A stretch of 64,000 nt of DNA, taken from contig JAJYRM010000004.1 of the NCBI GenBank assembly GCA_021794075.1, positions 8,838-72,837 on the forward strand, written 5' to 3'. Position numbers and translations under genes: made by a program. Within the stretch, counting starts at the first letter, position 1, and every line of letters begins with the position of its first letter. The notes under the pieces were generated by a model. The model made no database searches. It saw nothing but the letters and a program-made list of their open reading frames with translations, and was not told the origin of the DNA. Of the stretch, positions 56 to 30,082 are shown piece after piece. This DNA comes from Bacteroidota bacterium (GTDB taxonomy: Bacteria; Bacteroidota; Ignavibacteria; Kryptoniales; JAKASW01).

Positions 56-1888
56 TCACTCCACCGTGACACTCTTCGCGAGGTTTCTCGGTTTGTCAAC
101 GTCACACCCTCGAAGAAGAGCGATATGATACGCGAGCAATTGAAGAGGGATGACGGAAAGGACGGGGTTAAGCGAATCGATCGTCTTGGGAATCGGGATT
201 ATGTATTCCGCCATCTTGTTAACGCGAGGGTCATCGTGGTCTACTATCGCGATGACTCTTCCCCCTCGTGCTTTTATTTCCTCCATATTGCCGACTACTT
301 TTCCATAGGTCTCGTCGCGCGGCGCAAGGAATACTACCGGCATTTCACTGTCAACTAGAGCGATCGGCCCATGTTTCATTTCGGCCGCGGGATATCCCTC
401 GGCATGTATGTACGAAATCTCCTTCAACTTTAACGCGCCTTCAAGCGCAACAGGGAAGTTGTATCCCCTTCCCAGGTAAAGAAAATTCCTCGACTCATAA
501 AAAGCTTCCGCAACCTCCCTGATGAAAGGATCAAGCTGCAATGCCTCCGACATAAGCCCCGGCAATTTTCGCAGCTCTGCGGAGATGGTTTTCAGATCCT
601 CGGATTCGGGGTTAAGGCCGCGTGTGACCGCGATCGTTAGCATACTAAGCGCCACAAGTTGGCACGTGAATGCCTTCGTGGAAGCGACTCCGATCTCAGG
701 GCCCGCGTGAATATAAATGCCCGCCTTGCTTTCGCGGGCGATGCTGCTTCCGACGACATTGCAAACCGCGAGGCAGGTGGCACCCTTCGCATTAGCCATC
801 CGAAGCGCGGCAAGAGTATCCGCCGTCTCGCCGCTCTGAGAAATCGCCACCACCACATCGCTATTGTCGACGACAGGGTCGCGATATCTGAATTCGGACG
901 CGTACTCGACTTCAACCGGAATTTTCGCGTATCTCTCAAGGAGGTATTTGCCGTAAAGGGCTGAGTGCCAAGACGTTCCGCATCCCGTGAGTATTATTCT
1001 CCTCGCCGACAATATTTTCGGCATGAGGTTCAGAAGTCCGCCCAATTTAACGCTGTCGTCATCGGTAGAGATTCTTCCTCGCATTACGTTTCCTAATGCT
1101 TCAGGCTGTTCGAAAATCTCCTTCTGCATGAAATGTTCGTAATTGCCTTTCCGTATATCGTCGGACACGAGAGTCAGCTGCTCCGACTGGCGGACTACCT
1201 CACGGTTCTCAAGGGTTCTGAGATCAATCCCCTCTTTCGAGATAAAAGCGATCTCTCCGTCAGAGAGGTGTATCACTTCCGAAGAGTAAGGAACAAGCGC
1301 CGCCTGATCTGATCCCACCATAAACTGCCCGTCTCCTATGCCGATCAGGAGCGGGCTTCCGTTTCTGGCGGCGACCAGACATCCCGGCGTTCCTGAATGT
1401 AAAATCGCCAGCCCGTAGGTTCCTTCCAGCTCGCCGAGCGCGGCAAGTACTGCCGCATCAATCGAGGCTTTTGTCTTCAGCTTCTCCTCGATGAGGTGGG
1501 ATATAACCTCCGAATCGGTCTCCGACGCGAACGTGTGTCCCTCTTCGACGAGTCGCTCCCGAAGGGAATAGTAGTTTTCGATTATCCCGTTGTGGACAAC
1601 CGCCACAGTTCCCGTGCAATCGAGATGCGGGTGTGCGTTGGAAACAGAAGGGACACCATGAGTCGCCCACCGCGTGTGAGCTATCCCAATATTCGAAGCC
1701 GGAAGCTTGCTTGCCGCCAACCTCGCGAGTCCGTCCACCTTCCCGGGACACTTTACGTCGTATATTTTCGAATCGCTAACTACAGCGACACCGGCCGAGT
1801 CATATCCGCGATACTCAAGATTGTAGAGTCCATTGACGAGAATCGGTATCGCCACCCTCTTACCTATGTAACCGACAATTCCACACAT
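56..1888 (-). CDS. glmS: Glutamine--fructose-6-phosphate aminotransferase (GlmS), canonical copy
   Basis: 610 aa. N-terminal MCGIVGYIG (Cys1 Ntn glutaminase) and HTRWATHG. Two SIS domains (CGTSWHSA, SQSGETADTL, VASTKAFT). Isomerase residues intact (ALKLKEIS, EMKHGP, C-terminal NLAKSVTVE stop). Confidence 0.95.
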   Translation of the reverse strand: MCGIVGYIGKRVAIPILVNGLYNLEYRGYDSAGVAVVSDSKIYDVKCPGKVDGLARLAASKLPASNIGIAHTRWATHGVPSVSNAHPHLDCTGTVAVVHNGIIENYYSLRERLVEEGHTFASETDSEVISHLIEEKLKTKASIDAAVLAALGELEGTYGLAILHSGTPGCLVAARNGSPLLIGIGDGQFMVGSDQAALVPYSSEVIHLSDGEIAFISKEGIDLRTLENREVVRQSEQLTLVSDDIRKGNYEHFMQKEIFEQPEALGNVMRGRISTDDDSVKLGGLLNLMPKILSARRIILTGCGTSWHSALYGKYLLERYAKIPVEVEYASEFRYRDPVVDNSDVVVAISQSGETADTLAALRMANAKGATCLAVCNVVGSSIARESKAGIYIHAGPEIGVASTKAFTCQLVALSMLTIAVTRGLNPESEDLKTISAELRKLPGLMSEALQLDPFIREVAEAFYESRNFLYLGRGYNFPVALEGALKLKEISYIHAEGYPAAEMKHGPIALVDSEMPVVFLAPRDETYGKVVGNMEEIKARGGRVIAIVDHDDPRVNKMAEYIIPIPKTIDSLNPVLSVIPLQLLAYHIALLRGCDVDKPRNLAKSVTVE

Positions 1889-14513: not shown

Positions 14514-15341
14514 ATGAGTGGATTGAGAATTTCAAACGGAGCGCAGGTGAATACCGCGTTAAAAGAGATGGTACCGCTGACTTCACTATTCGATTCCCGG
14601 CCCAACCCTGAAACATTGCGGGAATGCCTAGAACAATTCAGCCAGCGCATTTCCGCAATCAGGGTGCTCATAGGGCATAACGAACACACTACCGTCGGCA
14701 CCACACGGCAATGCATCCAACTGGCCCACAGGTTCAACGTCCCCACGGTTACCCGCGTCGAATCTCCAAGGGTTGTCATCAATCGGGGAGTCCTCCCGAT
14801 CTACCTCGATCTCTGCGGAGAAACCGGTGTAAGCAGGATACAGTTTAGAAAGACGAGTCTTCAACACGGCATCAATCCCCGAGAGGTTGTTGCGCTTGCT
14901 GACGACAGGAACCTGGACATACAGTTTGAAATCACGGAGTGGTCTGCCACGAGAGGCCCGGAGAGCGAACAAGCTGAAATCAACGAGGGGATCGAATGGC
15001 TTGAAGCCGGCGCTTTAAATTTGGTCGCTAGCGTAACACGCCAGTCCGTTGTGAATGAGAACGGGCGTCAAAGCCAGATGAACATGCAATTTGCCGAAAG
15101 ACTGGCCAGGACATTTGGACTGCACGCTGTGATGTTCACGGCAGCGACCGAATCGGAGCAGACACCGCTGCTGAAAGCCTTCGGCGAGGAGACGCACATA
15201 TGCGATGTACCATTTGCCGATGTGGTCCGGGTGGAAAAGATGAGATCCGAAGTATCACTGGTTACATCCTTTTCAGCGGAAGTAGACTTCACCCTAGGTT
15301 ATCGCCGCAGCGACAATAGACCTGGGCAAAGGAATTACTGA
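14514..15341 (+). CDS. ComA-like (phosphosulfolactate synthase family, PF02679-like) TIM-barrel protein, divergent; paralog 1
   Basis: 275 aa. By-eye collinearity with archaeal ComA: I..I+...G; YLDLCGETGVSRIQF ~ FIEACKELGFEAVEI; LLKAFGEETHICDVPFADVVRVEKMR ~ ILKFGSSVNLANIAFDEVISLETLR. Clear paralog of 20973-21785. Coding confidence is high; the family call is tentative. Confidence 0.6.
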   Translation: MSGLRISNGAQVNTALKEMVPLTSLFDSRPNPETLRECLEQFSQRISAIRVLIGHNEHTTVGTTRQCIQLAHRFNVPTVTRVESPRVVINRGVLPIYLDLCGETGVSRIQFRKTSLQHGINPREVVALADDRNLDIQFEITEWSATRGPESEQAEINEGIEWLEAGALNLVASVTRQSVVNENGRQSQMNMQFAERLARTFGLHAVMFTAATESEQTPLLKAFGEETHICDVPFADVVRVEKMRSEVSLVTSFSAEVDFTLGYRRSDNRPGQRNY

Positions 15342-15345
15342 AATA

Positions 15346-16821
15346 TCATTTCAGGAGGAGCATCTTGATCGATAGTCTGGCAGAACTTGTCTGCAGCCTG
15401 CAAAGGTAGACGCCGCTCGGATAGGCATTTGCATCCCAGGATAACGCATGTTCCCCAGGCTGCAGAAACCCGCTGAAGAGGATGGCAACACGCTGCCCCA
15501 GGATATTGTACACGACCACTCTAACTCGTCCCGCTGAAGTGGTCCCGAACTTGATCGTCGTGGAAGGATTGAAAGGATTCGGATAGTTTTGGAGCAGATA
15601 GGGAGAGCTCGGCACGCCTGAAGGTGGTACGCTTACCACCGTTGTTGAAGTGTCAGCTTGGATATTCTTCACGGCTTCCATGAGAGGATAATTAGGACTT
15701 CCAGGAGGATACCCCCAGCCGAGTTCGTAGATTATCAGACCACCAAGATGATTCTTTCTTATATAGTTGAACTTCGCCGCGATAGAATTTGAGTCGTCGA
15801 ACGAAATAAAATAGCTGGGAGAAAGAAGCGAGAGAATGCCCGCGGGTATGCTGAGGTATCCGACTTGCGCCAGGGGATCCCAGTGGTAGTAAGCAGGGTT
15901 GAAGTATTTTTGCATGATGCCCGTTCCGCTTGAATTATAAAGCGGCACGTCGCTCGAAGATGAAAGAGTGACCGTGAGGGGTAGCACGTCCGGAAGGCTC
16001 GCGCCCTCCCAGACTGTTCCGGCAAACTCGCAGCCTATCCCTATTTTGGACGAATCGACGCCGGCCTTCTCGAACTGGCGCACAATGCTGTTCGCGTTTG
16101 GGAGAGGCTGACCGTCAAGAGAGTCACCGTCGCTGTAAAGCGCAGAATTGTACCAGGTGGGCCACCCACCATATTCCGCGGACAAATCATAGGTCATAAG
16201 ATTAATTTCGTTGAAGTATTTCTGAGTGTCCGCCATCAGACTCTGATTTCCGCCGCTGCTCGTCGACGTAAGAAGCATGCCGCTTCTCATCGCGTCGAGG
16301 CTATCCCGAAGCATATTGGCAAGATTAGTGAAATTTGGGTAATCCGATGTCGGTATTGGACCGGAGTAAGTCTCCCAGTCGATATCTACACCGTCGAAAT
16401 CATATTCCCTCACGAGCGCCATTATGTTGCTCACAAAGGTGCCTATGATGGCTGAGTCGGTAGCGCTTTCAAAGCCCGACTCGGTGTTCCAGCCGCCAAT
16501 CGAGACAAGGGCCTTCGCGCCTTTAGCATGGGCCGCTGCTGCAAGCAGTCTTGCCGCTTTGTAGTTCGCGTACGTGGTATCGATCGTGCCGTCGGGATTA
16601 GGTGAGAAACCGAAGTACGCCACAGCAGTCATGGACGAGAAGTCGACGGCGCTCAGCGGCGGAGTGCTGTTAGTGCTTCCGTTCCCAAGTTCCCATCCGG
16701 GGAAATAGCACATCACCCAAGGCTTCGCTTCGGCGCGCGGTGGAAGGATGATTAGCGCAAACACGAAAAGCGCGGCCAGCAGCGCCAGCCGCTTCTGTGA
16801 ATCGACAAGCCTCAACATCAT
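15346..16821 (-). CDS. GH18 chitinase-like glycoside hydrolase with T9SS C-terminal sorting domain (paralog 1)
   Basis: 491 aa. Signal peptide, WVMCYFPGWE, SIGGW, catalytic FDGVDIDWE (DxxDxDxE), MTYD, and CTD QNYPNPFNPST...SIKMLLLK. Confidence 0.9.
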   Translation of the reverse strand: MMLRLVDSQKRLALLAALFVFALIILPPRAEAKPWVMCYFPGWELGNGSTNSTPPLSAVDFSSMTAVAYFGFSPNPDGTIDTTYANYKAARLLAAAAHAKGAKALVSIGGWNTESGFESATDSAIIGTFVSNIMALVREYDFDGVDIDWETYSGPIPTSDYPNFTNLANMLRDSLDAMRSGMLLTSTSSGGNQSLMADTQKYFNEINLMTYDLSAEYGGWPTWYNSALYSDGDSLDGQPLPNANSIVRQFEKAGVDSSKIGIGCEFAGTVWEGASLPDVLPLTVTLSSSSDVPLYNSSGTGIMQKYFNPAYYHWDPLAQVGYLSIPAGILSLLSPSYFISFDDSNSIAAKFNYIRKNHLGGLIIYELGWGYPPGSPNYPLMEAVKNIQADTSTTVVSVPPSGVPSSPYLLQNYPNPFNPSTTIKFGTTSAGRVRVVVYNILGQRVAILFSGFLQPGEHALSWDANAYPSGVYLCRLQTSSARLSIKMLLLK

Positions 16822-17377
16822 GGCACATCACCGCACGCTGGTTCGTTGCGTATCCCTGACGCGTCTAAATGATGGTCCAATTGTGTGAAAGTATTACACA
16901 GTTCCGATTCCCCGTTCTCCCCCTTACGACTAAATTCTGTTCGTCCGTTCCATATTTCCTTGTGGAACTTCTCCGTGAAAAATCTCCTTCCGAAAAAATA
17001 TAGACCAGCTATAAGTCCGAGTCAACTCCTAAAACGATTTTTTGATCAAGAAAGAATATCACCGCAATCGGGCTCTGCCCGAACGAGTCGTAATTAATGC
17101 TTCGTCAGCGCCGTCGCGACCAAATGATATATCGATTCGTTTCGGCCACGGATTACAACGCGACGATTATCCTGGCGCGACGAATTTGCCCTGCGGCACT
17201 TACCGGTTCAGCCTGTCGCAACACAGACAATATCATGACTTTCGCAGACCCTCTTCCTGGAAGTAGCGGGAGCCGTTTCATCGCATTAACCATGCATACG
17301 GTATTCGTAGAGAGCGTGCTAACTTTGAAGCGCGCCTCAACATTCCATTTCTTTCGTTCGCTCATTAAAGCGGACTT

Positions 17378-19228
17378 TCAAATTTCTGGCGCAGTTTGTT
17401 CCACTGTTACAATCCTGGCAGGATTGCTCCGCTTGTCGACTTTGCATCCCCTGAGCAGCGCGATATGATATGCGAGGAGCTGAAGCGGGACGATTGAGAG
17501 AATCGGAGCAAGCATGTCAAGCGTCTTCGGGATCCTGACTGTATATTTCGAGATTTTACGGACCCGGTCATCTTCCTCATCTATAACGGAGATCAAGCTG
17601 GCTCCGCGCGCCTTCACTTCCGCCATGTTTCTAACCACTTTTTCGTAAGTCGAGTCTCGAGGCGCGATGAAGATAACAGGCATACCATTTCTAACTGGCA
17701 TGGTCTGGATATTCCTCATTTCTGCCGCGGGAAATCCCTCGGCATGGATGCCCGAAATCTCTTTCAGCTCCATTGCCCCTTCCAGAGCTACGGGATAGTT
17801 GAAGCCGCGGCCGAGGTAAAGGAAGTTTTCCGAATCGGAGAAATCGTCAGCGATCTCGCGGATGTAGGGCTCAAGTTGGAGAGTTTCAGTCACGAGATCG
17901 GGTAGCCTGCATAGTTGTTTAGTGATCTCCAGCCATTCTTTGAATTCCAGTTCACACCCGCGGGTAATAGAAAGCGTGAGAAGCACGAGTGTAGCCATCT
18001 GTGATGTGAACGTCTGCGTGGAAACGCCACCCAATCCAGAGTCTGCATTTATAAATACGCCGGCATCACATTCACGGGCGATGGAGCTTCCGCCCGTGCT
18101 GTTGATTGCCAATGTCGCCGATCCTTTAGACCTGGCGATCCGGATCGCCGCCAGAGTGTCCAGGGTCTCACCGCTATGACTTATTGCCACTACCACATCT
18201 TCCTTTCCGACGACAGGGTTCCTGTCAGTGAAATCGGAAGAACGCTCCACGTCTACAGGTATCCTTAGGTACCTCTCGAGGACATACTTTCCGTACAGCG
18301 CGGAGTGCCATGAAGTTCCGGATCCTGTTACAACTATTCGTCTCGCTGAGAGCAATCTCGGCATAACGCGGAGGAGGCCGCCTGCGTTGGCGGTTTTATC
18401 CTCTTCGGATATACACCCTCGCAAGACATTGATAAGCGCGAAGGGCTGTTCGAAAATTTCTTTTTGCATGAAGTGATTGTAGCCGCCTCGCTGAATCTCT
18501 TCGGCCGACCGACTAACGTCATCCATGTCGAGATGTATTTCGGAATTTTCAAGTGTCCTGATGCTCACCCCTTCTCTCGTGATGAAGGCCGCCTGGCCGT
18601 CTGAGAGATGCACCACCTTCCCCGCATAAGGCACCAGAACAGCTTCATCGGAAGCCACAATAAATTGTCCCTCCCCCACACCGACCATAAGAGGGCTTCC
18701 CTTCCGGGCGGCGATCAGCAGGTCCGGAGAGCCGGAGTGCACGATGGCCAGAGCATATGTACCTTCCAGATCTGCGAGGGCAGCAAGAACTGCAGCTTCT
18801 ATCGTCTTGTTGTGCTTCGATTTTTCTTCGATTAAATGAGAGATCACCTCAGTATCCGTTTCCGATTTGAAAGAATGACCGAGCTCCGCTAATGATTCCC
18901 GGAGCGACGGAGAATTTTCGATGACGCCGTTGTGAACCATCGCTATAGATTGCGAACAGTCAAACTGAGGATGTGCGTTCTGAACCGAAGGGCCTCCATG
19001 TGTTCCCCAGCGCGTGTGAGCTATGCCGAGATCTGAGTCAGGTAGCCTTCCCACAACCGCACGCGCAAGGAATTCCACCTTTCCTGGACACTTGACACAG
19101 TGAATCTTCGAATTACTTACGACCGCGACTCCGGCCGAATCGTATCCGCGATACTCAAGATTGTAAAGTCCGTTCACAAGTATTGGTATGGCAATTCTGT
19201 TACCTATATATCCGACGATTCCGCACAT
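17378..19228 (-). CDS. Divergent GlmS paralog (glutamine amidotransferase + 2 SIS) with substituted isomerase catalytic residues
   Basis: 616 aa from MCGIVGYIG at 19228. Cys must be residue 1 after Met removal, so the 42-codon upstream extension in the ORF track is rejected. The glutaminase domain is intact. AMELKE, EMRNIQTMP and the C-terminus NPARIVTVEQTAPEI replace ALKLKE, EMKHGPIAL and NLAKSVTVE. Confidence 0.9.
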   Translation of the reverse strand: MCGIVGYIGNRIAIPILVNGLYNLEYRGYDSAGVAVVSNSKIHCVKCPGKVEFLARAVVGRLPDSDLGIAHTRWGTHGGPSVQNAHPQFDCSQSIAMVHNGVIENSPSLRESLAELGHSFKSETDTEVISHLIEEKSKHNKTIEAAVLAALADLEGTYALAIVHSGSPDLLIAARKGSPLMVGVGEGQFIVASDEAVLVPYAGKVVHLSDGQAAFITREGVSIRTLENSEIHLDMDDVSRSAEEIQRGGYNHFMQKEIFEQPFALINVLRGCISEEDKTANAGGLLRVMPRLLSARRIVVTGSGTSWHSALYGKYVLERYLRIPVDVERSSDFTDRNPVVGKEDVVVAISHSGETLDTLAAIRIARSKGSATLAINSTGGSSIARECDAGVFINADSGLGGVSTQTFTSQMATLVLLTLSITRGCELEFKEWLEITKQLCRLPDLVTETLQLEPYIREIADDFSDSENFLYLGRGFNYPVALEGAMELKEISGIHAEGFPAAEMRNIQTMPVRNGMPVIFIAPRDSTYEKVVRNMAEVKARGASLISVIDEEDDRVRKISKYTVRIPKTLDMLAPILSIVPLQLLAYHIALLRGCKVDKRSNPARIVTVEQTAPEI

Positions 19229-19827: not shown

Positions 19828-20886
19828 ATGGAAAACACCTTGCATCCAAGTCTTTCTAATGAAAAGGAGAGTGGCACATTGGTTATGTATGTTGGGCAGA
19901 ACTGCAGCGACTCCGGAGAATACTGGAGTTCCGTATCACTGTACGCGGGCGCAGACATGCCCGAAGGGATGTCGATTCGCATTATCGACAGCATTGCCGA
20001 TCTCATGGCAATGAAGGACAGATGGGAACGGCTGTATGCCCAATCTCCAGAAGACACCAGCCTTTCATTTCAGGGACTGCTGAACTTCTGGAACGAAGTA
20101 GGTCGGGACAATGGGTACTCTCTTCACATCCTTCTTGTCTATTACGGCGGCAAAGTTATCGGTGGGATTCCAATGTATGCCATAGATGGAAACACCGTAG
20201 GTCTCACGAACCGCAAGACACTGCGACTGATGAAAAGCGATCCGAACCTCTCCGGGCATCGAGTGTCGTCTGAGATAAATGAACCGCGGAATGGATTGAG
20301 CGTACTTGCCGCAGCGGAAAACGGGCCCGCCGTAGTAAATGCCCTGGCCAGTTAGGTGCGATACTCATTTAAAACTTGCGAAACAGTCCAATTAAACAAT
20401 ACAACTTCTGTTAGCACACTCCCGACGGAGTCAGCTTCGATGCTCATTTCAGAAGAGTTCGGCTTTCAAGGCGGACCGGCGCCTTACTCTATGCAAGGAC
20501 ACTTCATTTATCAAATAGAATTGGTTAAAGAAAGGTTCGTGTCGTTGATGGACTCTGCTTGGCGCTCAATGAAAAGGACCAGAGAAAGAACGGAAAGTCA
20601 CGCCATCACTAAACGTCACATGGGGGTAGTATCCAAAGGTTTGGAATTAATTAAGCTTGCTAGCACCGCATTCGCTCATACGATAAAGGAATTCTACCGA
20701 AAGCCGATGGCGGACAAAATAGTCGGACAGACATTGCGGCGGTTGGGGTCGGGCATGCCTATCACAGCTCAGATTGCCGGAGCTGTTCCAACGCAGCGCC
20801 GACAATTACTTCGATTTGGCAGAGGCAAGCAACTTGTCGGGCATGCCTCGTCGCGGAATCAACTCAAAGAAGTCGAATTTCCCTAA
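19828..20886 (+). pseudogene. CelD/BcsL (FemAB-like GNAT) homolog interrupted by an in-frame TAG and lacking the C-terminal GNAT half
   Basis: ORFs 19828-20355 and 20356-20886 are in the same frame, separated only by TAG 20353-20355. Similarity to the intact paralogs (40788, 42313) runs through the stop: ALLQNRNRLWDEVEFQNL vs ALAS*VRYSFKTCETVQLNN. Total 352 codons against 397-497 in the intact copies. Confidence 0.55.
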
Positions 20887-20972: not shown

Positions 20973-21785
20973 ATGAAATCCGTGAAGATAGAAAATACCG
21001 CCCCGACGGGTTCAGCGGTTGAGGAAATGGCGCCGTTAACTTCCGTATTCGATCCCGACTCCACACCTAAAGCGATGGAAGAGTGCCTTGAGAACTACTT
21101 CAACCGCATTTCGGCGATAAGAGTCCTTATCGGTCGCAACGAGCACCACAGGACCCTTTCGCCAAGGCAGGCCATACTCGCGGCGCGCCGCTACGGCATC
21201 CCAACAATTACTCGCGTCGAGTCATCAAGTTTGAAACTCACGAAAGATTTGCTTGCGATATATCTGGACCTCTGCGCCGAGACTGGAGTGAAGGGGATTC
21301 AATTCCGGAGTGAGAGTCTGCATCCGGATGTCAGGCCTCGGGAGGTTGTGTCGCTGGCGAACAGCCGAGAGCTGGACGTGCAATTTGAGATTGAAGACGC
21401 GCGCTTCATCCCGTCAATGGCGAGCGAGGCGATGGATGTATTGATCGGCAATGCCACTGAATGGCTGGACGCCGGCGCGATCAATTTAGCGGCCGATATG
21501 ACAATGGTACGTCCGGACTTGCAGATAGACCTTAACATCGATCTGGCGGAGTATCTGGCGGGCGCTTTCGGGCTACGCACGATAATATTCAAAGCATCCT
21601 TCGAGTCAGTACACCAGGAATTGTTCGCCACGTTCGGCGACGAAGTCCATATCGGCGAGGTTCCTTTTGATCGCGTAGCGGCAGTTGAGAGCATGCGCAT
21701 GAATGCCGTGACGACATTCGCGTTTCCGTCGGATAGTTCCGATTCGTATTCGCACTGGCGCTGGTCCGACAACAGGCAAGGATGA
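20973..21785 (+). CDS. ComA-like (phosphosulfolactate synthase family-like) TIM-barrel protein, paralog 2
   Basis: 270 aa. Collinear with 14514-15341: EEMAPLTSVFDP...RISAIRVLIGRNEH...TITRVES...IYLDLCAETGVKGIQFRSESLH..RPREVVSLANSRELDVQFEIED. GAGGAGG Shine-Dalgarno upstream. Confidence 0.6.
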   Translation: MKSVKIENTAPTGSAVEEMAPLTSVFDPDSTPKAMEECLENYFNRISAIRVLIGRNEHHRTLSPRQAILAARRYGIPTITRVESSSLKLTKDLLAIYLDLCAETGVKGIQFRSESLHPDVRPREVVSLANSRELDVQFEIEDARFIPSMASEAMDVLIGNATEWLDAGAINLAADMTMVRPDLQIDLNIDLAEYLAGAFGLRTIIFKASFESVHQELFATFGDEVHIGEVPFDRVAAVESMRMNAVTTFAFPSDSSDSYSHWRWSDNRQG

Positions 21786-22035: not shown

Positions 22036-23481
22036 TCATTCGATTAAGACTAACTTCGTACTGGCCCTAAGTCTTCCCATCATCAGTGTGCAGATGTAAA
22101 CTCCGCTCGCGTGACCAAAACCGCTCCAGCTCAAATCGTGAGTGCCTGCCTGTATGTAGCCGGAATAAAGCGTGGCGACCCTTTGGCCGAGGACGTTATA
22201 TACCTCCACGTCAACATCCCCGGCAACGTTAATCACGAGAGGAATTGTAACGCTGCGACTAAAAGGATTCGGGTAAGGCTGTTGGAACTTCGCCGCAATG
22301 GGTGGCGGTGGCGTCGGGGGCAATGGCTTGGCTAAGAACTTGCTGAACTGTTGCTTGACTGTCTTCAAAAGCGGATATGTTCCATTCCCAGGATATCCCA
22401 TTCCCAGTTCGTAGAGAATTATTCCGCCGAGGCCTTTCTCTTTTATGTATTCGGCTTTAGCCGCGATGGAATTCGAATCGTCATATGAAATGAACAGCGC
22501 GTCGACGGGAAGGAGTGAAGGTATGCTTAGATAGCACGCCTCGGTCTTTGCATCCCAGTGGTAATACGACGAGCGATAATATTTCTGCATTATTCCCGTA
22601 GTATCGGGAGAATAGAGCGGTACATCATACTGGACCGACAGGAGTCCGTTAAGCAACTGACCAGGAAGATCTATCCCTTGCCACACGGTTCCTCCGAATT
22701 CGGCTCCTATCCCGAGCTTCGCGGCAGGTACCCCGGCGGCCTCGTATTTTCTTACCTCATCGTCAATAGAAGGGACGTATTCCTGGGTGCCGGGGAAAGT
22801 AATCCCGTCGTTGTATATAGGGCTGTTGAACCAACTTACCCAGCCGGGGAAATCGCCGGACATATCATAAGTCATTATGTTGATCTGGTCGAGATACTTC
22901 TGCGCGCTTGCCATGACCGTGCTGGACCCTGCGGTCGAAGTCAACGTATAATTCGGCCCGACCGAATCCCTGAGAGTTTTCACGAGTGCCACGAATTGCG
23001 AGTCATCCCCTTGACTGAGCGGTTCCCAATCGATGTCTATCCCGTTATACCCTCCGGCCCTGGCGAAGGTCACAAGGTTCGACACAAATTTGTTCAATAT
23101 CGCAGGCGCCGTGGCAGCCAGAAAATCTTTTTCGGTCGCCCAACCACCGATGCAAATCAAGACATTAGCCCCGGCGGCATGAGCGGCTTTAACGAGAGCG
23201 GCCCCTCCCTCCTTTGTGATATCGTTGTCGGCAGTGTCCAGGGTCCCATCCGGATTCGGAACGAGCGCGAAATAGACAACGTCGGTCATCGCGCTGAAAT
23301 CGACATCGGACACAGGGAGATATCCGTCGCTCCCTGTACCTAATTCCCATCCGCCATAATACGCGGTCACCCAATGTTGTTGCAACGGGCCGGCAATCAA
23401 CGGGACGCCGTTGAAGGGCATGACAATCAGCGCGGAGACTACCAGGCTCCAGCATAAGCACACTTCGATCTTCTTCATCAT
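22036..23481 (-). CDS. GH18 chitinase-like hydrolase with T9SS CTD (paralog 2)
   Basis: 481 aa. WVTAYYGGWE, CIGGW, YNGIDIDWE, MTYD, C-terminal PYPNPFSRS...STKLVLIE. Confidence 0.9.
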   Translation of the reverse strand: MMKKIEVCLCWSLVVSALIVMPFNGVPLIAGPLQQHWVTAYYGGWELGTGSDGYLPVSDVDFSAMTDVVYFALVPNPDGTLDTADNDITKEGGAALVKAAHAAGANVLICIGGWATEKDFLAATAPAILNKFVSNLVTFARAGGYNGIDIDWEPLSQGDDSQFVALVKTLRDSVGPNYTLTSTAGSSTVMASAQKYLDQINIMTYDMSGDFPGWVSWFNSPIYNDGITFPGTQEYVPSIDDEVRKYEAAGVPAAKLGIGAEFGGTVWQGIDLPGQLLNGLLSVQYDVPLYSPDTTGIMQKYYRSSYYHWDAKTEACYLSIPSLLPVDALFISYDDSNSIAAKAEYIKEKGLGGIILYELGMGYPGNGTYPLLKTVKQQFSKFLAKPLPPTPPPPIAAKFQQPYPNPFSRSVTIPLVINVAGDVDVEVYNVLGQRVATLYSGYIQAGTHDLSWSGFGHASGVYICTLMMGRLRASTKLVLIE

Positions 23482-23514
23482 TTACGAAGTACCAGCTCAT
23501 CCCAGCGAGAGAGG

Positions 23515-24786
23515 CTAATCACGCTGCCCTGCGCTCATCCTGATTTTTTTCATCCCATGGATCATCGAAAGCCGTTCAAGTGACTTGCCGAAAGCGTTGC
23601 CGGCCGCTTCCAGCAGAGGGTATTTCCCATCGCCGGGATATCCCCAGCCAAGCTCATACAAGATGATGCCGCCGAGTTTTTTCTTCTTCACATAGGCCGC
23701 CTTCGCCGCAATCGACGCCGAGTCATCATATGAAACAAACATATCGCCGGAATTTTGCCCCGCATGAATGCTTAGATAAGGCACCTTGGCGACCGGATCC
23801 CAATGTTCGTCAGACTTCGAATAGTATTTTTGCATTATTCCAGATCCATCGTGCCAGTAAAGCGGAACATCGAAGCGAACGGAAGGAGGAGATATCCATT
23901 TCTGGTCGGGCCTGGTCACTCCTTTCCCATCCATCATCACCCCTCCACGCCAAACTGCGCCGGCTAACTCCGCTCCGATACCGAGCTTTGAAGCCGGGAC
24001 ACCAGCGTCCGTGAATTTCTTGACGATGTTGTCGCACGCCGGTACCGGCTTCGACCAGCCTACAGTTATCCCGTCGTCATACAAGGCGCTGTTGTACCAT
24101 GTTACCCATCCATCCGATGGAAACGACAAGTCGTAAGTCATTAGATTTATTTCATCGAAATATTCGGACAACGAGGCCATTAGATTTTGAGACCCCGAAC
24201 TCGTGGCTGCGGTCAGGATGTACGGATGAGGTAGAGCCGCTCTTAATGCCTTCGTCAGATTTGCGTAAGCAGAAAAGTCGGAGTTGGTTAACGGCTCCCA
24301 GTCGATGTCCACGCCGTCGTAGTGACTTTTCCTCACGAACTTCACGATATTTCTCACGAAAGTGTCGAGTTCGGCTGGACGGGTCGCTCCTTCAAACAGC
24401 TTCTGAGTCTGCCAGCCACCTATCCCCATTATAACCGCAGTTCCTGCCGCGTGCGCCTCGCGTACCAGGGCGTTTGATCCCTCGCTGCTCATGTTGTCCG
24501 ACGTATCGATCGCGCCATTCGGGTAAGGAGTGAAGCCGAAATAGACCACGGCAGTCATGGAAGAGAAGTTGACTACGTTGATCGGAGGATTGCTGTTTGT
24601 GCCGTTGCCGACCTCCCAGCCGGGATAGTAACATGTGACCCAGTGTCGCGCCTGCGCGAAACAGTCGGACGCGGAAGATATGGAGAATATGACAGCGGCT
24701 GCCACGTACAACCATTGAATATTCGTTACCCGGCGTGCCGGGCTGCTCAGGCTATTCGAGCGTGAACATTCTGATCGATATTTCAT
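23515..24786 (-). CDS. GH18 chitinase-like hydrolase without T9SS CTD (paralog 3)
   Basis: 423 aa. WVTCYYPGWE, GIGGW, YDGVDIDWE, MTYD. It ends just after the catalytic domain, so no sorting domain. Confidence 0.85.
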   Translation of the reverse strand: MKYRSECSRSNSLSSPARRVTNIQWLYVAAAVIFSISSASDCFAQARHWVTCYYPGWEVGNGTNSNPPINVVNFSSMTAVVYFGFTPYPNGAIDTSDNMSSEGSNALVREAHAAGTAVIMGIGGWQTQKLFEGATRPAELDTFVRNIVKFVRKSHYDGVDIDWEPLTNSDFSAYANLTKALRAALPHPYILTAATSSGSQNLMASLSEYFDEINLMTYDLSFPSDGWVTWYNSALYDDGITVGWSKPVPACDNIVKKFTDAGVPASKLGIGAELAGAVWRGGVMMDGKGVTRPDQKWISPPSVRFDVPLYWHDGSGIMQKYYSKSDEHWDPVAKVPYLSIHAGQNSGDMFVSYDDSASIAAKAAYVKKKKLGGIILYELGWGYPGDGKYPLLEAAGNAFGKSLERLSMIHGMKKIRMSAGQRD

Positions 24787-24863
24787 CTGAAATAATCCTT
24801 TCGAGTTATAGTTGAGGCGATATCCATGTGGTCTAGATACGACCTCTTCCCTACTTGACCTTC

Positions 24864-26351
24864 TTATTTGAGAAGGACCATCTTTCTCATAATTGATACA
24901 TTATTTATACGCAAAGTGAATAGGTACACGCCGCTCGCGTCTCCGCTCCCGTTCCACTCCCTGGAGTACGAACCGGGCAAAAGGTAACTATCGATCAGGG
25001 TAGCGATTCTCTCCCCGAGAATATTGTAGATGTCGAGCGTGACGTGCGCCGGCGTGTCAATCCGGAATGAGATTGCGGTTACTGGATTAAATGGGTTGGG
25101 ATAGTTCTGATAAAGGCTTCCGAAAAGGCCTACATTACCGCTCGTGATCGGGACGTAGTACAGGAAGTCCGACTTGATCGACTGCAAAAGTGGATAAGAT
25201 CCATGCCCCGGATATCCCATCCCAAGCTCGTAAATAATGATTCCGCCGAGACCTTCCTTCCTGATGAATCGCGCCTTTGCTTCGATCGACGCTGAATCGT
25301 CATACGAAACGAAGCAAGCTGGTTTTCCCCGCTGCTGCGGAATGCTGAGATAACCAACTTGCGCCAGTGAGTCCCAGTGATAGTAATAAGGCTTGTAGTA
25401 ATGCTGCATTATTCCGGTGCTGTCATGTGAGTAAAGTGGCACATCATACATAACAGAATTGAGCGAAAATAGCGATTCGTCCGGTTCAGTTACGCCCGTC
25501 CAGACTGTCCCGCCAAGTTCCGCCCCGATACCGATTTTATCCGGAGCGACCCCCGCCTTTTCGAAGTTGTCAACGACCGCCTTAATGGAAGGGAGATGCG
25601 TCTTCAACCCCGGAAATTTCAGGCCGCCGTCGTAGACAGGCGAATTGAACCAAACGACCCATCCGCCTGTTGGAAAGGACATCTCATACGTCATAATATT
25701 TACTTGTTCAAAGTAATTCTGATCGAGTGACATAATCTTCTTATTACCGGGACTGCATGTTGTAGTTAGAAAATCAGCTTTTGAAATCGCCTTGAGAGAA
25801 TCGTGGAGCGCTCTGGCGAGTGCTGTGAAGGGATAGTAATCCTGAGCGTTGATTGGTTCCCAGTCGATGTCTATTCCGTCGAATTTATTTACCCTGACGA
25901 AGTCGATAAGATTTCGGACGAACTCGCTGAGGTGCCCGGTATCGGTAGCGCGCTCGAAGTCTGTTCCGCTTCCGGCTCCTCCGACGCATATCAACACTTT
26001 CGCGGAGGCGGAGTGCGCCGCGCGAATGAGTTTCTCCGTCCCTTCACTAGTGATTCCATTTGTGGATGTATCAATCGTGCCGTCGGCGTTCGGCACAAGA
26101 GCGAAATCTATAACATCGGTGAAGGCGGAAAAGTCGACATCAGAAACAGGGAGATAACCGTTCGAGCCGTTACCGAGTTCCCAGGCTCCGTAATAAGCCG
26201 TTACCCAATGAGCCGGCTCAGCGTCACAGAATTTCGGTACACATAAGAACGATGACATCATTACAGAAACCAATGAAATGAAAGCCCGCGCAAGATCGCT
26301 TCGCGCGAGCATGGATAAATAGGAATCGGAGCCAACTGATGGTGTATTCAA
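24864..26351 (-). CDS. GH18 chitinase-like hydrolase with T9SS CTD (paralog 4)
   Basis: 495 aa. WVTAYYGAWE, CVGGA, FDGIDIDWE, MTYE, CTD QNYPNPFNPVT...MRKMVLLK. Confidence 0.9.
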   Translation of the reverse strand: MNTPSVGSDSYLSMLARSDLARAFISLVSVMMSSFLCVPKFCDAEPAHWVTAYYGAWELGNGSNGYLPVSDVDFSAFTDVIDFALVPNADGTIDTSTNGITSEGTEKLIRAAHSASAKVLICVGGAGSGTDFERATDTGHLSEFVRNLIDFVRVNKFDGIDIDWEPINAQDYYPFTALARALHDSLKAISKADFLTTTCSPGNKKIMSLDQNYFEQVNIMTYEMSFPTGGWVVWFNSPVYDGGLKFPGLKTHLPSIKAVVDNFEKAGVAPDKIGIGAELGGTVWTGVTEPDESLFSLNSVMYDVPLYSHDSTGIMQHYYKPYYYHWDSLAQVGYLSIPQQRGKPACFVSYDDSASIEAKARFIRKEGLGGIIIYELGMGYPGHGSYPLLQSIKSDFLYYVPITSGNVGLFGSLYQNYPNPFNPVTAISFRIDTPAHVTLDIYNILGERIATLIDSYLLPGSYSREWNGSGDASGVYLFTLRINNVSIMRKMVLLK

Positions 26352-26712
26352 TTTCCGCTACTCCAATGCAATGTCGTTAGCAGGCCCCGATGGTGGTGAT
26401 GCCCAGCCTGCCATCGCCGGATTTCACTCCTGATCGAGTTTAAAACCAGTCGGTTCGGTCAAGCTGGGTGAACTTACCGTGGACCCGCCCTCGCGAGCCG
26501 TCCGATAACTTGGCGGCTTGTTCATGACGGCCCCTCCTTCGACTTGGCTCCGTGGGACCTGGCAAGAATATATCATCAATCCTCAGGCCGGAAGATTCTG
26601 ACGATTATTCATCGAATCGCTGCAGGCCGCGTATATATTTTACACGCTCATTCCGGAGAATTGGTTAGGTGGTACACATTTACGGCGAACGAGGCGGCTC
26701 GTCGGGAGGTAC

Positions 26713-26745
26713 AAAAAAAAGGTCGCCCCATTTCTGAGGGCGACC
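26713..26745 (-). terminator. Rho-independent terminator after the large GH18 gene
   Basis: Minus strand: GGTCGCCC-tcagaaat-GGGCGACC followed by T8 (plus-strand A8 at 26713-20). A second 7-bp hairpin (gctcggc/gccgagc, 26770-26790) lies between it and the stop codon. Confidence 0.75.
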
Positions 26746-26806
26746 CCGCGAACATTTCAATTTATGGCAGCTCGGCAGAGTGAGCCGAGCCTGTCTCATC
26801 GAGTCG

Positions 26807-29800
26807 TCACTTTATTAGAATCATCTTCTTAATCATGGCTTTGTTGCCTGCCATCAGTCTGTAGAAATAAACTCCGCTCGCGCAACTCGAACCATTCCAC
26901 ACCGCAGAATGCATTCCAGCGCTCATGTAACTATCGACCAGCGTTGACACCTGCTGGCCGAGCGTGTTGTACACCTTGAGCGTAACATGCGCTGCTTCCG
27001 GTACAGAAAACATAATCGTTGTAGTCGGGTTGAAAGGATTCGGATAGTTTTGCTCCAGGGCAAACTTCGAGGGCGTTTGCACCGAGGCGACAGTATCTAT
27101 TCCGGTAGCCGTCAGCGAACTGGAGGCATTGTTCAATTGCAGATTGTCCAGATAGTATGTCTCGGTTTGGCTGCTGTTCTCCGAAATGTCGATCCGGTCA
27201 AATTGCTGATTAGACGGATTTAGACTGCTCATCGGTACCGTTATCAATGTCCATTTATTAGCGTGAACACTCCCGACAGAGACGGCCTGGAATGAGGTTC
27301 CCGCGTCGCTTTCAAGTCCAACTGTGAAGGACATCTTCGAGCTAGTGTAGACCTCGAACTGGACTGCGCTGTAAAGAGCCGGGTTTATGTACTCCCCGGA
27401 ATTCCACGCGCCATAATGGAGACTCGCCGCTCCCCATTCACCTTGTACAACTGAAATCGAGGAGCTTCCGCCGTAAACCGGGCTGGTGTTTGAGAAGTTG
27501 AGCGTGGCATTCCATGAGGCGTCCATCCACGGAGACTGGAGCGCATCCTGGTAAATTGCCAGGCCGGGAACGGAAGCCACCGAAGGTATTTTGAAGACCC
27601 AGGGGGAAGACCAATTGCTCGTCAAGCTGCCGGAGCTCGCGTCGGCGCGCCAGTAATACGTGTTTCCCGCCTGCAAATTGTTTACGGTAAGGGAATCCGT
27701 CGTCAGGTTGGCGCTATCGACAACGGTCGAAGAGAAAGTACTGTCCGTCGATACCTGTAGTCGGCAGGATGTGGCTCCCGAAGGTATTTTCCATGTCAAC
27801 GTCACCGGGGATGTGACAGTGGAATCAGCTTCGGCAGGTAGCAAGAGTGTCGGCGCCGGAATCGTGGTCAGCTGCAGATTATCGATATAGTAAGTTATTG
27901 GATTGCCGCTCGCGTCTTCGATTACAAGCATGGTGAAGACCTGGTTCGTCGGATCGAGCTCCGACATCGGAATAGTGATGCTTGTCCAGTGATCCGCGGA
28001 AACCGTGCCATAATTGACAGTCGGGAACGTGACTCCCGTCGGACCGCCCATAAGGAACACCGCAAGGTCGATAGAAGAAGCGGAATAGATGTCGAATGTA
28101 ACGTCGGAATACTGCGCCGGGTCAACATTCACCAACGCATTCCATCCTCCGGAAAGGAGCCTGAAACCGCCGGAAGCATTCTGTGCGACGCTAACGGACG
28201 CGGTGCATCCGCTGTAAACTATAGATGTGTTTGCGAAATCGTCAGTCACGTTCCACGAACCATCCGACCAGTTCGACGCCAGCTGGTTCTGGTAAATCCA
28301 AGTCCCCGAAGTGCTGGCTGCGCTAGAGGCGACGGTATTAGAGACCGTTACCGTTACTGAACTGGTTGCTGTGTTACCTGCCGCGTCGCTCGCAACCGCT
28401 GATATCGTGTGGGTGCCGTTTGACAGACCGGATGTGGCCAATGTAGTGGTGTACGGCGAGGTAGTAATAGCGCTTCCATAATTCGTTCCGTCGATCTTAA
28501 ATTGCACGCCAGTTACGCCGACATTGTCGCTGGCGTTTGCTGAAAGCGATATGGTCCCGGACACGGTCGATCCGCTCGAGGGCGACGTGACAGAAACAGT
28601 CGGCGCGGTTGTATCCTTGGTCGAGAGGATGTTTGAAACATTCACGGTGATCGACGCAGTCGAAGAATTGCCCGCGGCGTCCGTTGCCGTCGCGCTTATC
28701 GTGTGCGTGCCGTTAGTTAGCGTCGTAGTGAGAAGGCTTGCTGTAAACGGAGCAACACTGATTGTCGATCCGATCAAACTGCCATCCACTTTGAACGTAA
28801 CGCCTGTAACTCCGACGTTATCGGAAGCGTTAGCCGAAATTGACAGAGTGCCGGACACCGTCGCGCCGTTCGTCGGCGAGGAAATCGAAATAGAGGGAGG
28901 AATCGTGTCGGTCGGCACCGCTGTAGTACCGCCGCCCATCTCTTTCTTCACGTACGCCAGCAAGGGATAAGTGCCGTTGCCCGGGTATCCCATGCCGAGA
29001 GAATAGATGATCAATCCGCCGAGTCCCTTGCTGTTTATGTAGTTAAACTTGGCATTGACATCGCTCGTGTCTTCAAAGCTTATGAAGTAATCGCTGGAGT
29101 TGGTCGAGCCGGTCGTGCTGAGGTAAGACGCCTGGGCCTGACTGTCCCAGTGATAGTCCTGGGCATTGTAATATTTTTGCATGATTCCGGAGCCGTCCGA
29201 CGCATAAAGGGGCACGTCTTCCTGTACGGTGGGAGCTGTTGACCATGCCTGGTTTGGTCCGGTTACACCGGCGCCGTTCGTCATCGTGCCGCCGTTCCAC
29301 ACTGTCCCGGCGAACTCGGAGCCTATGCCGAGTTTAGATGCGGACACACCGGCGCTTTCATAACTGGCAACCTGTGAATTGACGTTGGATGAAGCTTCCG
29401 ACCCGTTTGTTGAGGCCGTGCCGTAAGAATATACAGAGCTGTTGTACCATGACACCCATCCCTGCCACGGGCCGGCCATATCGTATGTCATGATATTTAT
29501 CTGGTTAACTTCCGACTGGACGGCCGCCATCGCGGTAGGATCTCCGGCAGTCGTCGTAATCAGATAGGAGCTCCCCAGCGCGGAGCGAAGAGCCTTAATC
29601 AGCGCCTCGTACTGCGCGTCGTCGGTTGAGGCTTCCGGTTCCCAGTCGATATCTACGCCGTCCATATTATTGTTCTTTACAAAAGCGACGATGTTAGAGA
29701 CGAACGTGTTAAGGTTCGTCGAGTTCGTGGCGCCCTGGAATCCGCTCTCGGTATTCCATCCGCCAACGCAGATAAGCACTTTGGTGCCGCTGGCATGCGC

Positions 29801-30082
29801 CGCTGTGGTAAGCGCCGTGGCACCGGTTGTCGAAATGCCGTTGCTCGCTAAATCGAGCGATCCGTCCGCGTTAGGCACGATCGCGAAATAGACAACGTCG
29901 GTCATCGCGCTAAAATCGACATCTGCGACCGGCATGTACCCGTTTGATCCATCTCCTAACTCCCACCCGCAATAATAAGCAGTCACCCACGGCTTGGCCT
30001 GTACTTTCGCTGCCGCAATCGACATGAGAAATATCAGCGCCGCGGTCAACAAACCTCGGTATCTATTCTCGAACTTTTTCAT
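26807..30082 (-). CDS. Multidomain GH18 (paralog 5): GH18 + 2 Ig-like + CBM-like + FN3-like + CBM-like + T9SS CTD
   Basis: 1091 aa. WVTAYYCGWE, CVGGW, MDGVDIDWE, MTYD. Two repeats ..SGT(L/I)S(I/L)SANASDNVGVTGV.FK(V/I)DG... One YYWRADAS FN3-like module of the same type as in 2499-6572. CTD QNYPNPFNPTT...IKKMILIK. AAGGAG Shine-Dalgarno. Confidence 0.9.
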   Translation of the reverse strand: MKKFENRYRGLLTAALIFLMSIAAAKVQAKPWVTAYYCGWELGDGSNGYMPVADVDFSAMTDVVYFAIVPNADGSLDLASNGISTTGATALTTAAHASGTKVLICVGGWNTESGFQGATNSTNLNTFVSNIVAFVKNNNMDGVDIDWEPEASTDDAQYEALIKALRSALGSSYLITTTAGDPTAMAAVQSEVNQINIMTYDMAGPWQGWVSWYNSSVYSYGTASTNGSEASSNVNSQVASYESAGVSASKLGIGSEFAGTVWNGGTMTNGAGVTGPNQAWSTAPTVQEDVPLYASDGSGIMQKYYNAQDYHWDSQAQASYLSTTGSTNSSDYFISFEDTSDVNAKFNYINSKGLGGLIIYSLGMGYPGNGTYPLLAYVKKEMGGGTTAVPTDTIPPSISISSPTNGATVSGTLSISANASDNVGVTGVTFKVDGSLIGSTISVAPFTASLLTTTLTNGTHTISATATDAAGNSSTASITVNVSNILSTKDTTAPTVSVTSPSSGSTVSGTISLSANASDNVGVTGVQFKIDGTNYGSAITTSPYTTTLATSGLSNGTHTISAVASDAAGNTATSSVTVTVSNTVASSAASTSGTWIYQNQLASNWSDGSWNVTDDFANTSIVYSGCTASVSVAQNASGGFRLLSGGWNALVNVDPAQYSDVTFDIYSASSIDLAVFLMGGPTGVTFPTVNYGTVSADHWTSITIPMSELDPTNQVFTMLVIEDASGNPITYYIDNLQLTTIPAPTLLLPAEADSTVTSPVTLTWKIPSGATSCRLQVSTDSTFSSTVVDSANLTTDSLTVNNLQAGNTYYWRADASSGSLTSNWSSPWVFKIPSVASVPGLAIYQDALQSPWMDASWNATLNFSNTSPVYGGSSSISVVQGEWGAASLHYGAWNSGEYINPALYSAVQFEVYTSSKMSFTVGLESDAGTSFQAVSVGSVHANKWTLITVPMSSLNPSNQQFDRIDISENSSQTETYYLDNLQLNNASSSLTATGIDTVASVQTPSKFALEQNYPNPFNPTTTIMFSVPEAAHVTLKVYNTLGQQVSTLVDSYMSAGMHSAVWNGSSCASGVYFYRLMAGNKAMIKKMILIK

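Follow-up and report, generated by a model that had tools for sequence, protein, structure and literature searches.

A GlmS paralogue of an uncultured Kryptoniota-like bacterium keeps its glutaminase residues, lacks isomerase catalytic residues and is under purifying selection

Introduction

The canonical amidotransferase GlmS/GFAT (TIGR01135, EC 2.6.1.16; PDB 2j6h and 4amv) combines an N-terminal nucleophile (Ntn) glutaminase domain with two SIS domains. Few amidotransferases are as conserved or as well understood as GlmS, which gates all amino-sugar synthesis. Glu488, His504 and Lys603 (E. coli numbering throughout) are highly conserved catalytic residues of its isomerase (ISOM) domain (PMC9272926), Lys485 and Glu488 are also treated as key ISOM residues (PMC7948480), and Trp74 together with the C-terminal tail forms a sealed ammonia channel (PMC7948480). 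Here we analyse a second GlmS-like gene, copy 2, in a 64,000-nucleotide stretch of DNA (hereafter the window; contig JAJYRM010000004.1, positions 8,838 to 72,837, assembly GCA_021794075.1) from an uncultured Kryptoniota-like bacterium from mine drainage. Copy 2 has the same Ntn glutaminase and two SIS domains as GlmS/GFAT and a similar length, but it differs at Lys485, His504, Lys603, Gln348, Val399 and Lys403, in the His loop and in the C-terminal tail, and constraint at the level of the active site appears to be lost.

Additional GlmS copies are familiar from other bacteria. Rhizobial NodM is a second, pathway-dedicated GlmS, and such paralogues are, as far as is known, catalytically canonical glucosamine-6-phosphate (GlcN6P) synthases. 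Like the NodM-type copies, copy 2 is an extra paralogue beside the housekeeping enzyme and near glycan-related genes; unlike them, it lacks the isomerase catalytic residues. The double-SIS module has also been recruited to other sugar-phosphate chemistry, in the GlcN6P deaminases NagB-II and GlmD and in the fructoselysine-6-phosphate deglycase FrlB. Copy 2 resembles the hidden Markov models (HMMs) of these proteins weakly, at 98.5 bits for NagB-II (NF046059, cut-off 430), 91.7 for GlmD (NF041128, cut-off 580) and 27 for FrlB (cut-off 430), and copy 1, the canonical GlmS of the window, outscores it on all three. These proteins are SIS-only, whereas copy 2 carries a glutaminase domain; by scores and domain content it does not belong to the SIS-type GlcN6P deaminases. 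A further parallel, by analogy only, is HisZ, a HisRS paralogue that regulates ATP-phosphoribosyltransferase: as in copy 2, a duplicated enzyme has lost catalytic residues and is held by purifying selection, but in copy 2 the glutaminase, one of two sites, still looks competent. In the library of papers that we searched, no GlmS paralogue is described that is clearly maintained by selection and retains its glutaminase while lacking the catalytic residues of the isomerase.

Results

Copy 2 keeps the GlmS architecture

The two genes and the parts of copy 2 discussed below are located in the window as follows.

17378..19228, minus strand: coding sequence of the GlmS-like paralogue copy 2, 616 aa plus stop (open reading frame (ORF) list, TIGR01135/NF001484, Pfam)
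18509..19228, minus strand: Ntn glutaminase domain, residues 1-240 (residues kept, few conserved columns changed, substitution rates, no acceleration)
17399..18484, minus strand: two-SIS isomerase domain, residues ~249-610, with the fold kept and the active site dismantled (conserved columns changed, substitution rates, distance ratio, model)
17768..17770, minus strand: codon for Glu487 (E. coli Lys485 to Glu); the retained Glu (E. coli Glu488) lies three codons downstream (alignment)
17711..17713, minus strand: codon for Asn506 (E. coli His504 to Asn) within the rewritten His loop RNIQTMPVR (alignment)
17414..17416, minus strand: AGG codon for Arg605 (E. coli Lys603 to Arg); GGG (Gly) in the orthologue described below (alignment)
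17378..17398, minus strand: C-terminal extension QTAPEI, six codons plus stop (canonical stop lost)
56..1888, minus strand: copy 1, canonical GlmS of 610 aa, adjoining exopolysaccharide (EPS) genes (TIGR01135, residue check, syntenic orthologue P0006)

The predicted protein starts with MCGIVGYIG, and a GGAAGG Shine-Dalgarno-like motif lies upstream. Copy 2 scores 653 bits with TIGR01135 (cut-off 418; copy 1, 798) and 662.5 bits with NF001484 (cut-off 381; copy 1, 816), and Pfam assigns GATase_6/7 and two SIS domains to each copy. The copies are 62% identical to one another (66% in the glutaminase domain, 60% in the isomerase domain), and copy 2 is ~40% identical to E. coli GlmS. By HMM cut-offs, domain architecture, Cys1 and the glutamine-site residues copy 2 is thus a GlmS, and it lacks the isomerase catalytic set and the conserved C-terminal lid. 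Metagenomes from mine drainage, tailings, sediment and wastewater contain the copy 2 sequence. Near-identical genes are present in three ENA assemblies made independently of each other and in seven public DNA runs; copy 2 is therefore no assembly artefact. A 123-aa ORF at 17097-17468 on the plus strand overlaps the 3' end of copy 2 and is very likely a spurious shadow ORF.

The remodelling is confined to the isomerase half

Copy 2 was aligned by phmmer to the E. coli GlmS structures 4amv/2j6h over residues 1-610 (E ~1e-137), without gaps around the critical residues. In this alignment Lys485 is replaced by Glu (ALKLKE to AMELKE) with Glu488 kept, His504 by Asn (ELKHGPLALI to EMRNIQTMPV) and Lys603 by Arg (NLAKSVTVE to NPARIVTVE, followed by QTAPEI), and VASTKAFT has become GVSTQTFT. 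The C-terminus thus reads SNPARIVTVE plus QTAPEI against the canonical lid RNLAKSVTVE. The extension results from loss of the canonical stop codon, a position occupied by CAA in copy 2 and by TAG in the orthologue. A MAFFT alignment of copy 2 with 120 database homologues, 118 of them canonical, gave the same picture: Lys485, Glu488, His504 and Lys603 are invariant in all 118 canonical sequences, and Gln348, Val399 and Lys403 nearly so. Further changes in copy 2 are Q348H, V399G, A400V, K403Q, K503R, C300S, L484M, L601P and S604I; Glu488 and the phosphate-binding residues Thr302, Ser303, Ser347, Ser349 and Thr352 are retained.

The glutaminase residues Cys1, Arg26, Arg73, Trp74, Thr76, His77, Asn98, Gly99 and Asp123 are all canonical. 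Where conservation within canonical GlmS reaches 98% or more, copy 2 deviates at 2 of 61 columns of the glutaminase domain (A75G and G157A) and at 33 of 123 columns of the isomerase domain (Fisher p = 4e-5). On these counts the change is real, non-random, far wider than three residues and restricted to the isomerase half. In copy 1 every catalytic residue is canonical.

The original prediction, made from the letters of the window, had named the three replacements, the retained Glu488, the GVSTQTFT motif and the six-residue extension, and had described an intact glutaminase domain beside a textbook GlmS in copy 1. These observations are confirmed, and neither the phmmer nor the MAFFT alignment restores Lys or His at 485, 504 or 603. 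It had also taken the flanking sequence to be well conserved, which is partly true but overlooks the changes at more than a quarter of the near-invariant isomerase positions.

Copy 2 and its orthologue are selectively constrained

Among 5.8 billion proteins searched there was exactly one further variant of this kind, P0002, which is 81% identical to copy 2 and comes from the metagenome-assembled genome (MAG) 'Bacteroidetes bacterium MAS4.bin38' (GCA_021811615.1). Gene order at its locus matches that of the window, running from three GH18 genes (four in the window) through a ComA-like gene and one of unknown family to the GlmS-like gene and a last GH18 gene. MAS4.bin38 also encodes a canonical GlmS, P0006, which occupies the place syntenic with copy 1 and is 89% identical to it. 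Residues 485, 504 and 603 of P0002 are Glu, Asn and Gly, and Trp74 is replaced by Ser. P0002 and copy 2 have in common Q348H, K403Q, K485E, K503R, H504N, L601P, C300S and L484M, and these substitutions are therefore older than the species split.

The two species are separated by a synonymous divergence (dS) of ~1.1-1.4 for both genes, and the ratio of nonsynonymous to synonymous divergence (dN/dS) was compared between the canonical and the variant pair. Over the whole gene the canonical pair has a ratio of 0.045 and the variant pair one of 0.098. The glutaminase domains are alike (0.08 canonical versus 0.06-0.08 variant); the first SIS domain (0.03-0.04 versus 0.10-0.11) and the second SIS domain with the tail (0.025-0.03 versus 0.12-0.14) differ. 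Judged by these ratios, constraint on the isomerase domain is relaxed 3-5 times, and the glutaminase domain is as constrained as that of the canonical GlmS of the same genomes. Distances to eight outgroups reveal no acceleration of the glutaminase domain (ratio 1.0-1.2) and an excess in the isomerase domain of 1.5-1.95-fold towards seven members of the Fibrobacteres-Chlorobi-Bacteroidetes (FCB) group and of 1.35 towards E. coli. Across the locus, orthologues are 81% identical for copy 2, 89% for canonical GlmS, 90-92% for GH18 genes b-d, 81% for GH18a and 75% for the ComA-like gene.

Within the window's own population, copy 2 in three other assemblies differs at 6-9 nucleotides, and only two of the differences are non-synonymous. 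With an intact ORF in two species, a dN/dS of 0.098 at dS ~1.1 and mostly synonymous polymorphism, a pseudogene was excluded, in agreement with the original view that the gene is not decaying. These rates indicate that copy 2 is under purifying selection, with a constraint on its N-terminal domain equal to that of the real enzyme.

The former sugar site is no better conserved than the rest of the domain

To describe the sugar site we used 20 residues, combining the ISOM contacts given in PMC9272926 with classical knowledge of E. coli GlmS: Cys300, Gly301, Thr302, Ser303, Ser347, Gln348, Ser349, Thr352, Val399, Ser401, Leu484, Lys485, Lys487, Glu488, His504, Leu601, Ala602, Lys603, Ser604 and Val605. 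Copy 1 is identical to E. coli at all 20, compared with 45% in the rest of the domain (p = 3e-7), and copy 2 at 11. Between copy 2 and P0002, 16 of the 20 are identical, which is indistinguishable from the 78% of the rest of the domain. The two disagree at 603 (Arg/Gly), 349 (Ser/Gly), 399 (Gly/Asn), 604 (Ile/Met), 402 (Thr/Ile) and 505-506; the His loop reads RNIQTMPVR in copy 2 and RNAATAPVR in P0002, and the channel-gating Trp74 is Trp in copy 2 and Ser in P0002. The tail extension is restricted to the window's lineage and is absent from P0002.

This pattern is suggestive of a loss of catalytic constraint in which the fold, and possibly phosphate binding, have been kept, rather than of a new fixed catalytic constellation. 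It does not bear out the earlier proposal that the sugar site underwent directed remodelling to suit a new acceptor, given a site conservation at background level and orthologues that differ at 603, 74, 349 and 399, in the His loop and in the tail.

The predicted structure is that of GlmS

An AlphaFold2 model of copy 2, built from a 51-sequence alignment, reached a mean predicted local distance difference test score (pLDDT) of 85, and its top Foldseek matches are GlmS/GFAT. The modelled isomerase domain superimposes on solved GlmS/GFAT isomerase domains with template modelling (TM) scores of 0.91-0.96 and root-mean-square deviations of 1.6-2.5 Å. Together with the Pfam assignments this agrees with the expectation that both SIS folds are preserved. 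The lid elements (505-509 and 601-616) have a pLDDT below 50. Low pLDDT was rejected as a sign of lid loss, since a control model of copy 1 is nearly alike (block 501-510 averages 60, and 603-610 lies below 50); only the fold assignment is used here.

Copy 2 arose in its own lineage and has few counterparts

Neighbour-joining trees of either domain place copy 2 and P0002 within the Kryptoniota-like GlmS clade that contains copy 1, and among named relatives a Candidatus Kryptoniota GlmS comes nearest (72% identity). By this placement copy 2 is a lineage-specific duplication and not a transfer. A segmental duplication of the copy 1 region was considered and rejected, as the 88-aa and 131-aa ORFs that flank copy 2 in the MAG are unlike the flanks of copy 1.

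An exhaustive phmmer search covered 1.84 billion cluster representatives, of which the best 150 were checked. Isomerase catalytic residues are kept in 146 of the 149 representatives other than copy 2; among the best 150, only P0002, P0121 and P0191 lack them while keeping Cys1. The same few cases appeared among 366 collected homologues, a rarity of 2-4 in ~366. All three resemble copy 2 in keeping Cys1 and the glutaminase residues and losing ISOM residues, and they are either unannotated or annotated as GlmS. Unlike P0002, the only clear orthologue, P0121 and P0191 do not have the replacement residues of copy 2.

P0121 (GCA_046705025.1; L091, 10001-11857) is strongly degenerate, with Gly485, Arg504 and Gly603, a rewritten EFRYR motif and a C-terminal extension, and a homologue search left it a singleton. 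It is equally distant from both copies (49-51% identity) and syntenic with the copy 1 position, and in the neighbour-joining trees of both domains it groups with copy 2. On that grouping P0121 may be the true orthologue of copy 2; its copy 1 position, its equal distance and possible long-branch attraction speak against it. On a second contig of the same assembly the genes run in the same order, and the GlmS there, P0010 (L174, 3050-4882), is canonical. The block, present in these two diverged versions, comprises GlmS, a 138-aa gene, a PAS-HisKA_3 kinase, a sigma54 activator and RsbU/SpoIIE/STAS genes. Between the contigs, identity is 46-80% for the flanking genes (99% for one STAS gene) and 67-74% for the DNA. 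The contigs stem either from co-binned organisms or from an old segmental duplication. P0191, from a Logan contig of another lineage (L093, 578-2401, 3.4-kb contig), carries E488Q, H504D and K603G with Lys485 and Cys1 kept, and lies directly upstream of a Poly_export (Wza-like) gene. Both P0121 and P0191 adjoin polysaccharide export genes.

A DNA-pattern scan for Glu485 across 185,579 GTDB species genomes had a single match, the otherwise canonical glmS of Variovorax sp. UC74_104 (NZ_CP171978.1; L090, 2177-4057), whose K485E (ALELKE) may be a tolerated change, a sequencing error or a mark of an inactive copy. The combined Glu485 and Gly491 DNA pattern had no match in JGI metagenome contigs. 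The converse condition occurs in two other GlmS homologues, P0189 and P0214, in which Cys1 is replaced by Ser and the isomerase residues are intact; these could be glutaminase-dead, ammonia-dependent or isomerase-only forms, or the products of gene-start errors.

Copy 2 lies among chitinase-type genes

The neighbourhood of copy 2 contains the following features.

15346..16821, minus strand: GH18 chitinase-type gene with a type IX secretion system (T9SS) sorting domain, downstream of copy 2 (Pfam; DGVDIDWE motif intact; orthologue 81% identical)
16883..17030, minus strand: conserved non-coding block with a promoter-like site before GH18 (78% identity over ~150 nt with the MAS4.bin38 locus)
19828..20886, plus strand: divergent 352-aa gene of unknown family, interrupted by TAG (ORF comparison)
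20973..21785, plus strand: ComA-like (PF02679) gene, a conserved neighbour (Pfam; conserved gene order; orthologue 75% identical)
22036..30082, minus strand: four further GH18 paralogues, three with T9SS tails (catalytic motifs intact; orthologues of b, c and d 90-92% identical)

The original prediction had suggested that copy 2 may be dedicated to the EPS locus, which its position does not support: it is copy 1 that abuts the EPS genes. That module encodes a 1357-aa Ig/fn3 protein, a GT4 phosphoglycosyl transferase, an outer-membrane protein, a Wza-like Poly_export protein, Wzz/GNVR, a ParA-like kinase and a DegT aminotransferase, and it includes a ComA-like gene. A GH18 gene stands between this module and copy 2, on whose other side lie the 352-aa gene, a second ComA-like gene and four more GH18 genes.

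The five GH18 genes (15346-16821, 22036-23481, 23515-24786, 24864-26351 and 26807-30082, all minus) encode proteins 44-51% mutually identical; DxDxDWE is intact in all five, T9SS sorting domains are present in four, and one protein has 1091 aa and Big_7 Ig domains. A large secreted chitinase-type arsenal thus adjoins the EPS module. A second glycan-type cluster is found at ~35-47 kb; in it, the genes at 40788-42281 and 42313-43506 (plus) are relatives of a FemAB/GNAT-like (Acetyltransf_6) 361-aa gene that belongs to the GlmS2 locus of MAS4.bin38 and is absent from the corresponding place in the window.

The block before the downstream GH18 gene includes the promoter-like site TTGACT-17-TATATT at 17025-16997 (10 of 12 positions matched). 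Because this GH18 gene has its own conserved promoter-like block, copy 2 is probably transcribed from a promoter of its own, as a monocistronic unit. An Rfam scan of the whole window yielded no family at its gathering score, and hence no glmS ribozyme or other leader RNA. The 352-aa gene has an in-frame TAG at 20353-20355 in the window, where another assembly of the population (L005) has Tyr, and the MAS4.bin38 orthologue shares no more than 39% identity with it; the gene is either decaying or fast-evolving. Neither the 352-aa gene nor its 377-aa counterpart matches a Pfam or NCBIfam family. The ComA-like genes at 14514-15341 and 20973-21785 (both plus) are paralogues of the phosphosulfolactate-synthase family (PF02679), ~44% identical to one another, and one of them follows the DegT aminotransferase in the EPS module. 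They score 25-31 bits against the archaeal ComA equivalog cut-off of 280. With the 352-aa neighbour unmatched and the ComA-like genes below cut-off, the context indicates no pathway.

Discussion

As a variant of a very well-known enzyme, copy 2 comes with solid evolutionary evidence of being functional, and almost certainly it is not a GlcN6P synthase. Loss of Lys485, His504 and Lys603, of the His loop and of the lid would be expected to abolish ring opening of fructose 6-phosphate (Fru6P), Schiff-base formation and ketose-aldose isomerisation. The explanation we favour, and to which we give about even chances, is that copy 2 is a pseudo-GlmS, maintained by selection, which does not isomerise but can still bind or hydrolyse glutamine. 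Selection would then act on glutamine binding or hydrolysis by the N-terminal domain, carried on an SIS scaffold that is not catalytic and might still accommodate a phosphorylated ligand, and the protein would serve as a glutamine- or ligand-responsive regulator or as an uncoupled glutaminase. Copy 2 is most likely a pseudo-enzyme and not a new sugar-aminating enzyme, and in this broad sense the regulatory pseudo-enzyme of the original prediction fits, with its other proposal, an amidotransferase for a new acceptor, remaining a serious rival. The position among secreted GH18 genes suggests a link to amino-sugar supply, which is the weakest step of the argument.

Several observations weigh against a pseudo-enzyme. 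The site statistics are weak, with two orthologues. Six of the nine replaced site residues (Ser300, His348, Met484, Glu485, Asn504 and Pro601) are the same in both after a dS of ~1.1 and could mark a new functional site. Copy 2 has kept Glu488 and the phosphate-binding loop, and a glutaminase constraint equal to that of real GlmS would also be expected if ammonia still reached an acceptor. The structure model does not discriminate, low pLDDT at the His loop and C-terminal tail being found in the copy 1 control as well, and three metatranscriptome runs of the same study, searched as assembled contigs, gave only spurious matches of 20-45 nt, which are evidence neither way. Much of this would suit a neofunctionalised amidotransferase in which ammonia is channelled to the SIS domains and aminates another phosphorylated keto compound. 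A candidate acceptor is an acyclic keto-sugar phosphate, for which a ring-opening His504 would not be needed and Glu488 could act as the base. That proposal would account for a glutaminase domain constrained like that of true GlmS, for the retention of Glu488 with Thr302, Ser303, Ser347 and Thr352, for His348, Gln403, Glu485, Arg503, Asn504 and Pro601 in both orthologues, and for the polysaccharide export genes next to the dead-isomerase P0121 and P0191. It is harder to reconcile with the orthologues' Arg versus Gly at 603 and Trp versus Ser at 74, with a site no more conserved than the domain background, and with P0121, which has other residues again (Gly485, Arg504 and Gly603). The His loop and C-terminal tail, elements of site closure and of the ammonia channel (PMC7948480), also differ between the orthologues, one tail being lengthened by stop loss. 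Copy 1 also lies by EPS genes, so that the association of the variants with EPS may be inherited. On balance we consider neofunctionalisation possible, though with well under an even chance.

An attractive special case of the pseudo-enzyme explanation is a dominant-negative or regulatory partner. In the E. coli GlmS dimer, His504 is donated to the site of the neighbouring subunit, and a heterodimer of copy 1 and copy 2 would contain two crippled sites; expressing copy 2 while amino sugars from chitin are at hand would then switch off de novo synthesis of GlcN6P. In favour of such a partner, both copies are present in both genomes, copy 2 sits among five secreted GH18 genes with intact catalytic motifs, and conservation extends to the overall fold and to most of the SIS domain. 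The His loop, which is part of the dimer contact, is nevertheless rewritten and differs between the orthologues, and the retention of glutaminase catalytic residues is left unexplained; we hold this version to be rather improbable. It is less probable again that copy 2 is a spare isozyme, still a GlcN6P synthase with reduced or altered kinetics. Passing the curated GlmS HMM cut-offs, keeping Glu488, a positive charge at 603 in the form of Arg, and the K485E of the otherwise canonical Variovorax glmS would all be compatible with residual synthesis. However, two of the three named catalytic residues are lost, together with Lys485, Gln348, Val399 and the His loop, which are invariant in ~360 homologues; Arg cannot form a Schiff base and the orthologue has Gly at 603; and the isomerase domain is evolving 1.5-2 times faster than that of copy 1. 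Least credible of all is a decaying relic, a pseudogene in progress. The relaxed isomerase constraint, the lost canonical stop and a neighbouring gene with a nonsense polymorphism and fast divergence could be read in its favour, but ORFs of 610-616 codons are intact in two species at dS ~1.1 with a dN/dS of 0.10 (0.06-0.08 in the N-terminal domain), the inactivating changes are older than the species split, and polymorphism is mostly synonymous.

Tentatively, and at well below even likelihood, copy 2 may be the first recognised member of a small GlmS-derived class that couples a working glutaminase to a non-catalytic or differently catalytic isomerase module. Such a protein might sense glutamine or a phospho-sugar and tune or poison GlmS by heterodimerisation during a plentiful supply of chitin-derived amino sugars, or it might be an amidotransferase with a new acceptor, perhaps an acyclic keto-phosphate. 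If the class is real, the independent cases P0121 and P0191, both close to genes for polysaccharide export, would show that evolution has arrived at this outcome repeatedly and would not be noise. The reach of the finding is narrow, comprising two closely related uncultured species and two isolated, dissimilar cases. Because copy 2 passes the curated GlmS HMM thresholds, annotation pipelines would label it glutamine--fructose-6-phosphate transaminase, and metabolic reconstructions would count it as GlmS. Known controls of hexosamine synthesis include the glmS ribozyme, GlmY/GlmZ/RapZ and GlmR. If copy 2 is a regulator, it would represent a new control mechanism of hexosamine synthesis; should it instead be an amidotransferase acting on a new acceptor, a new amino-sugar route would be indicated.

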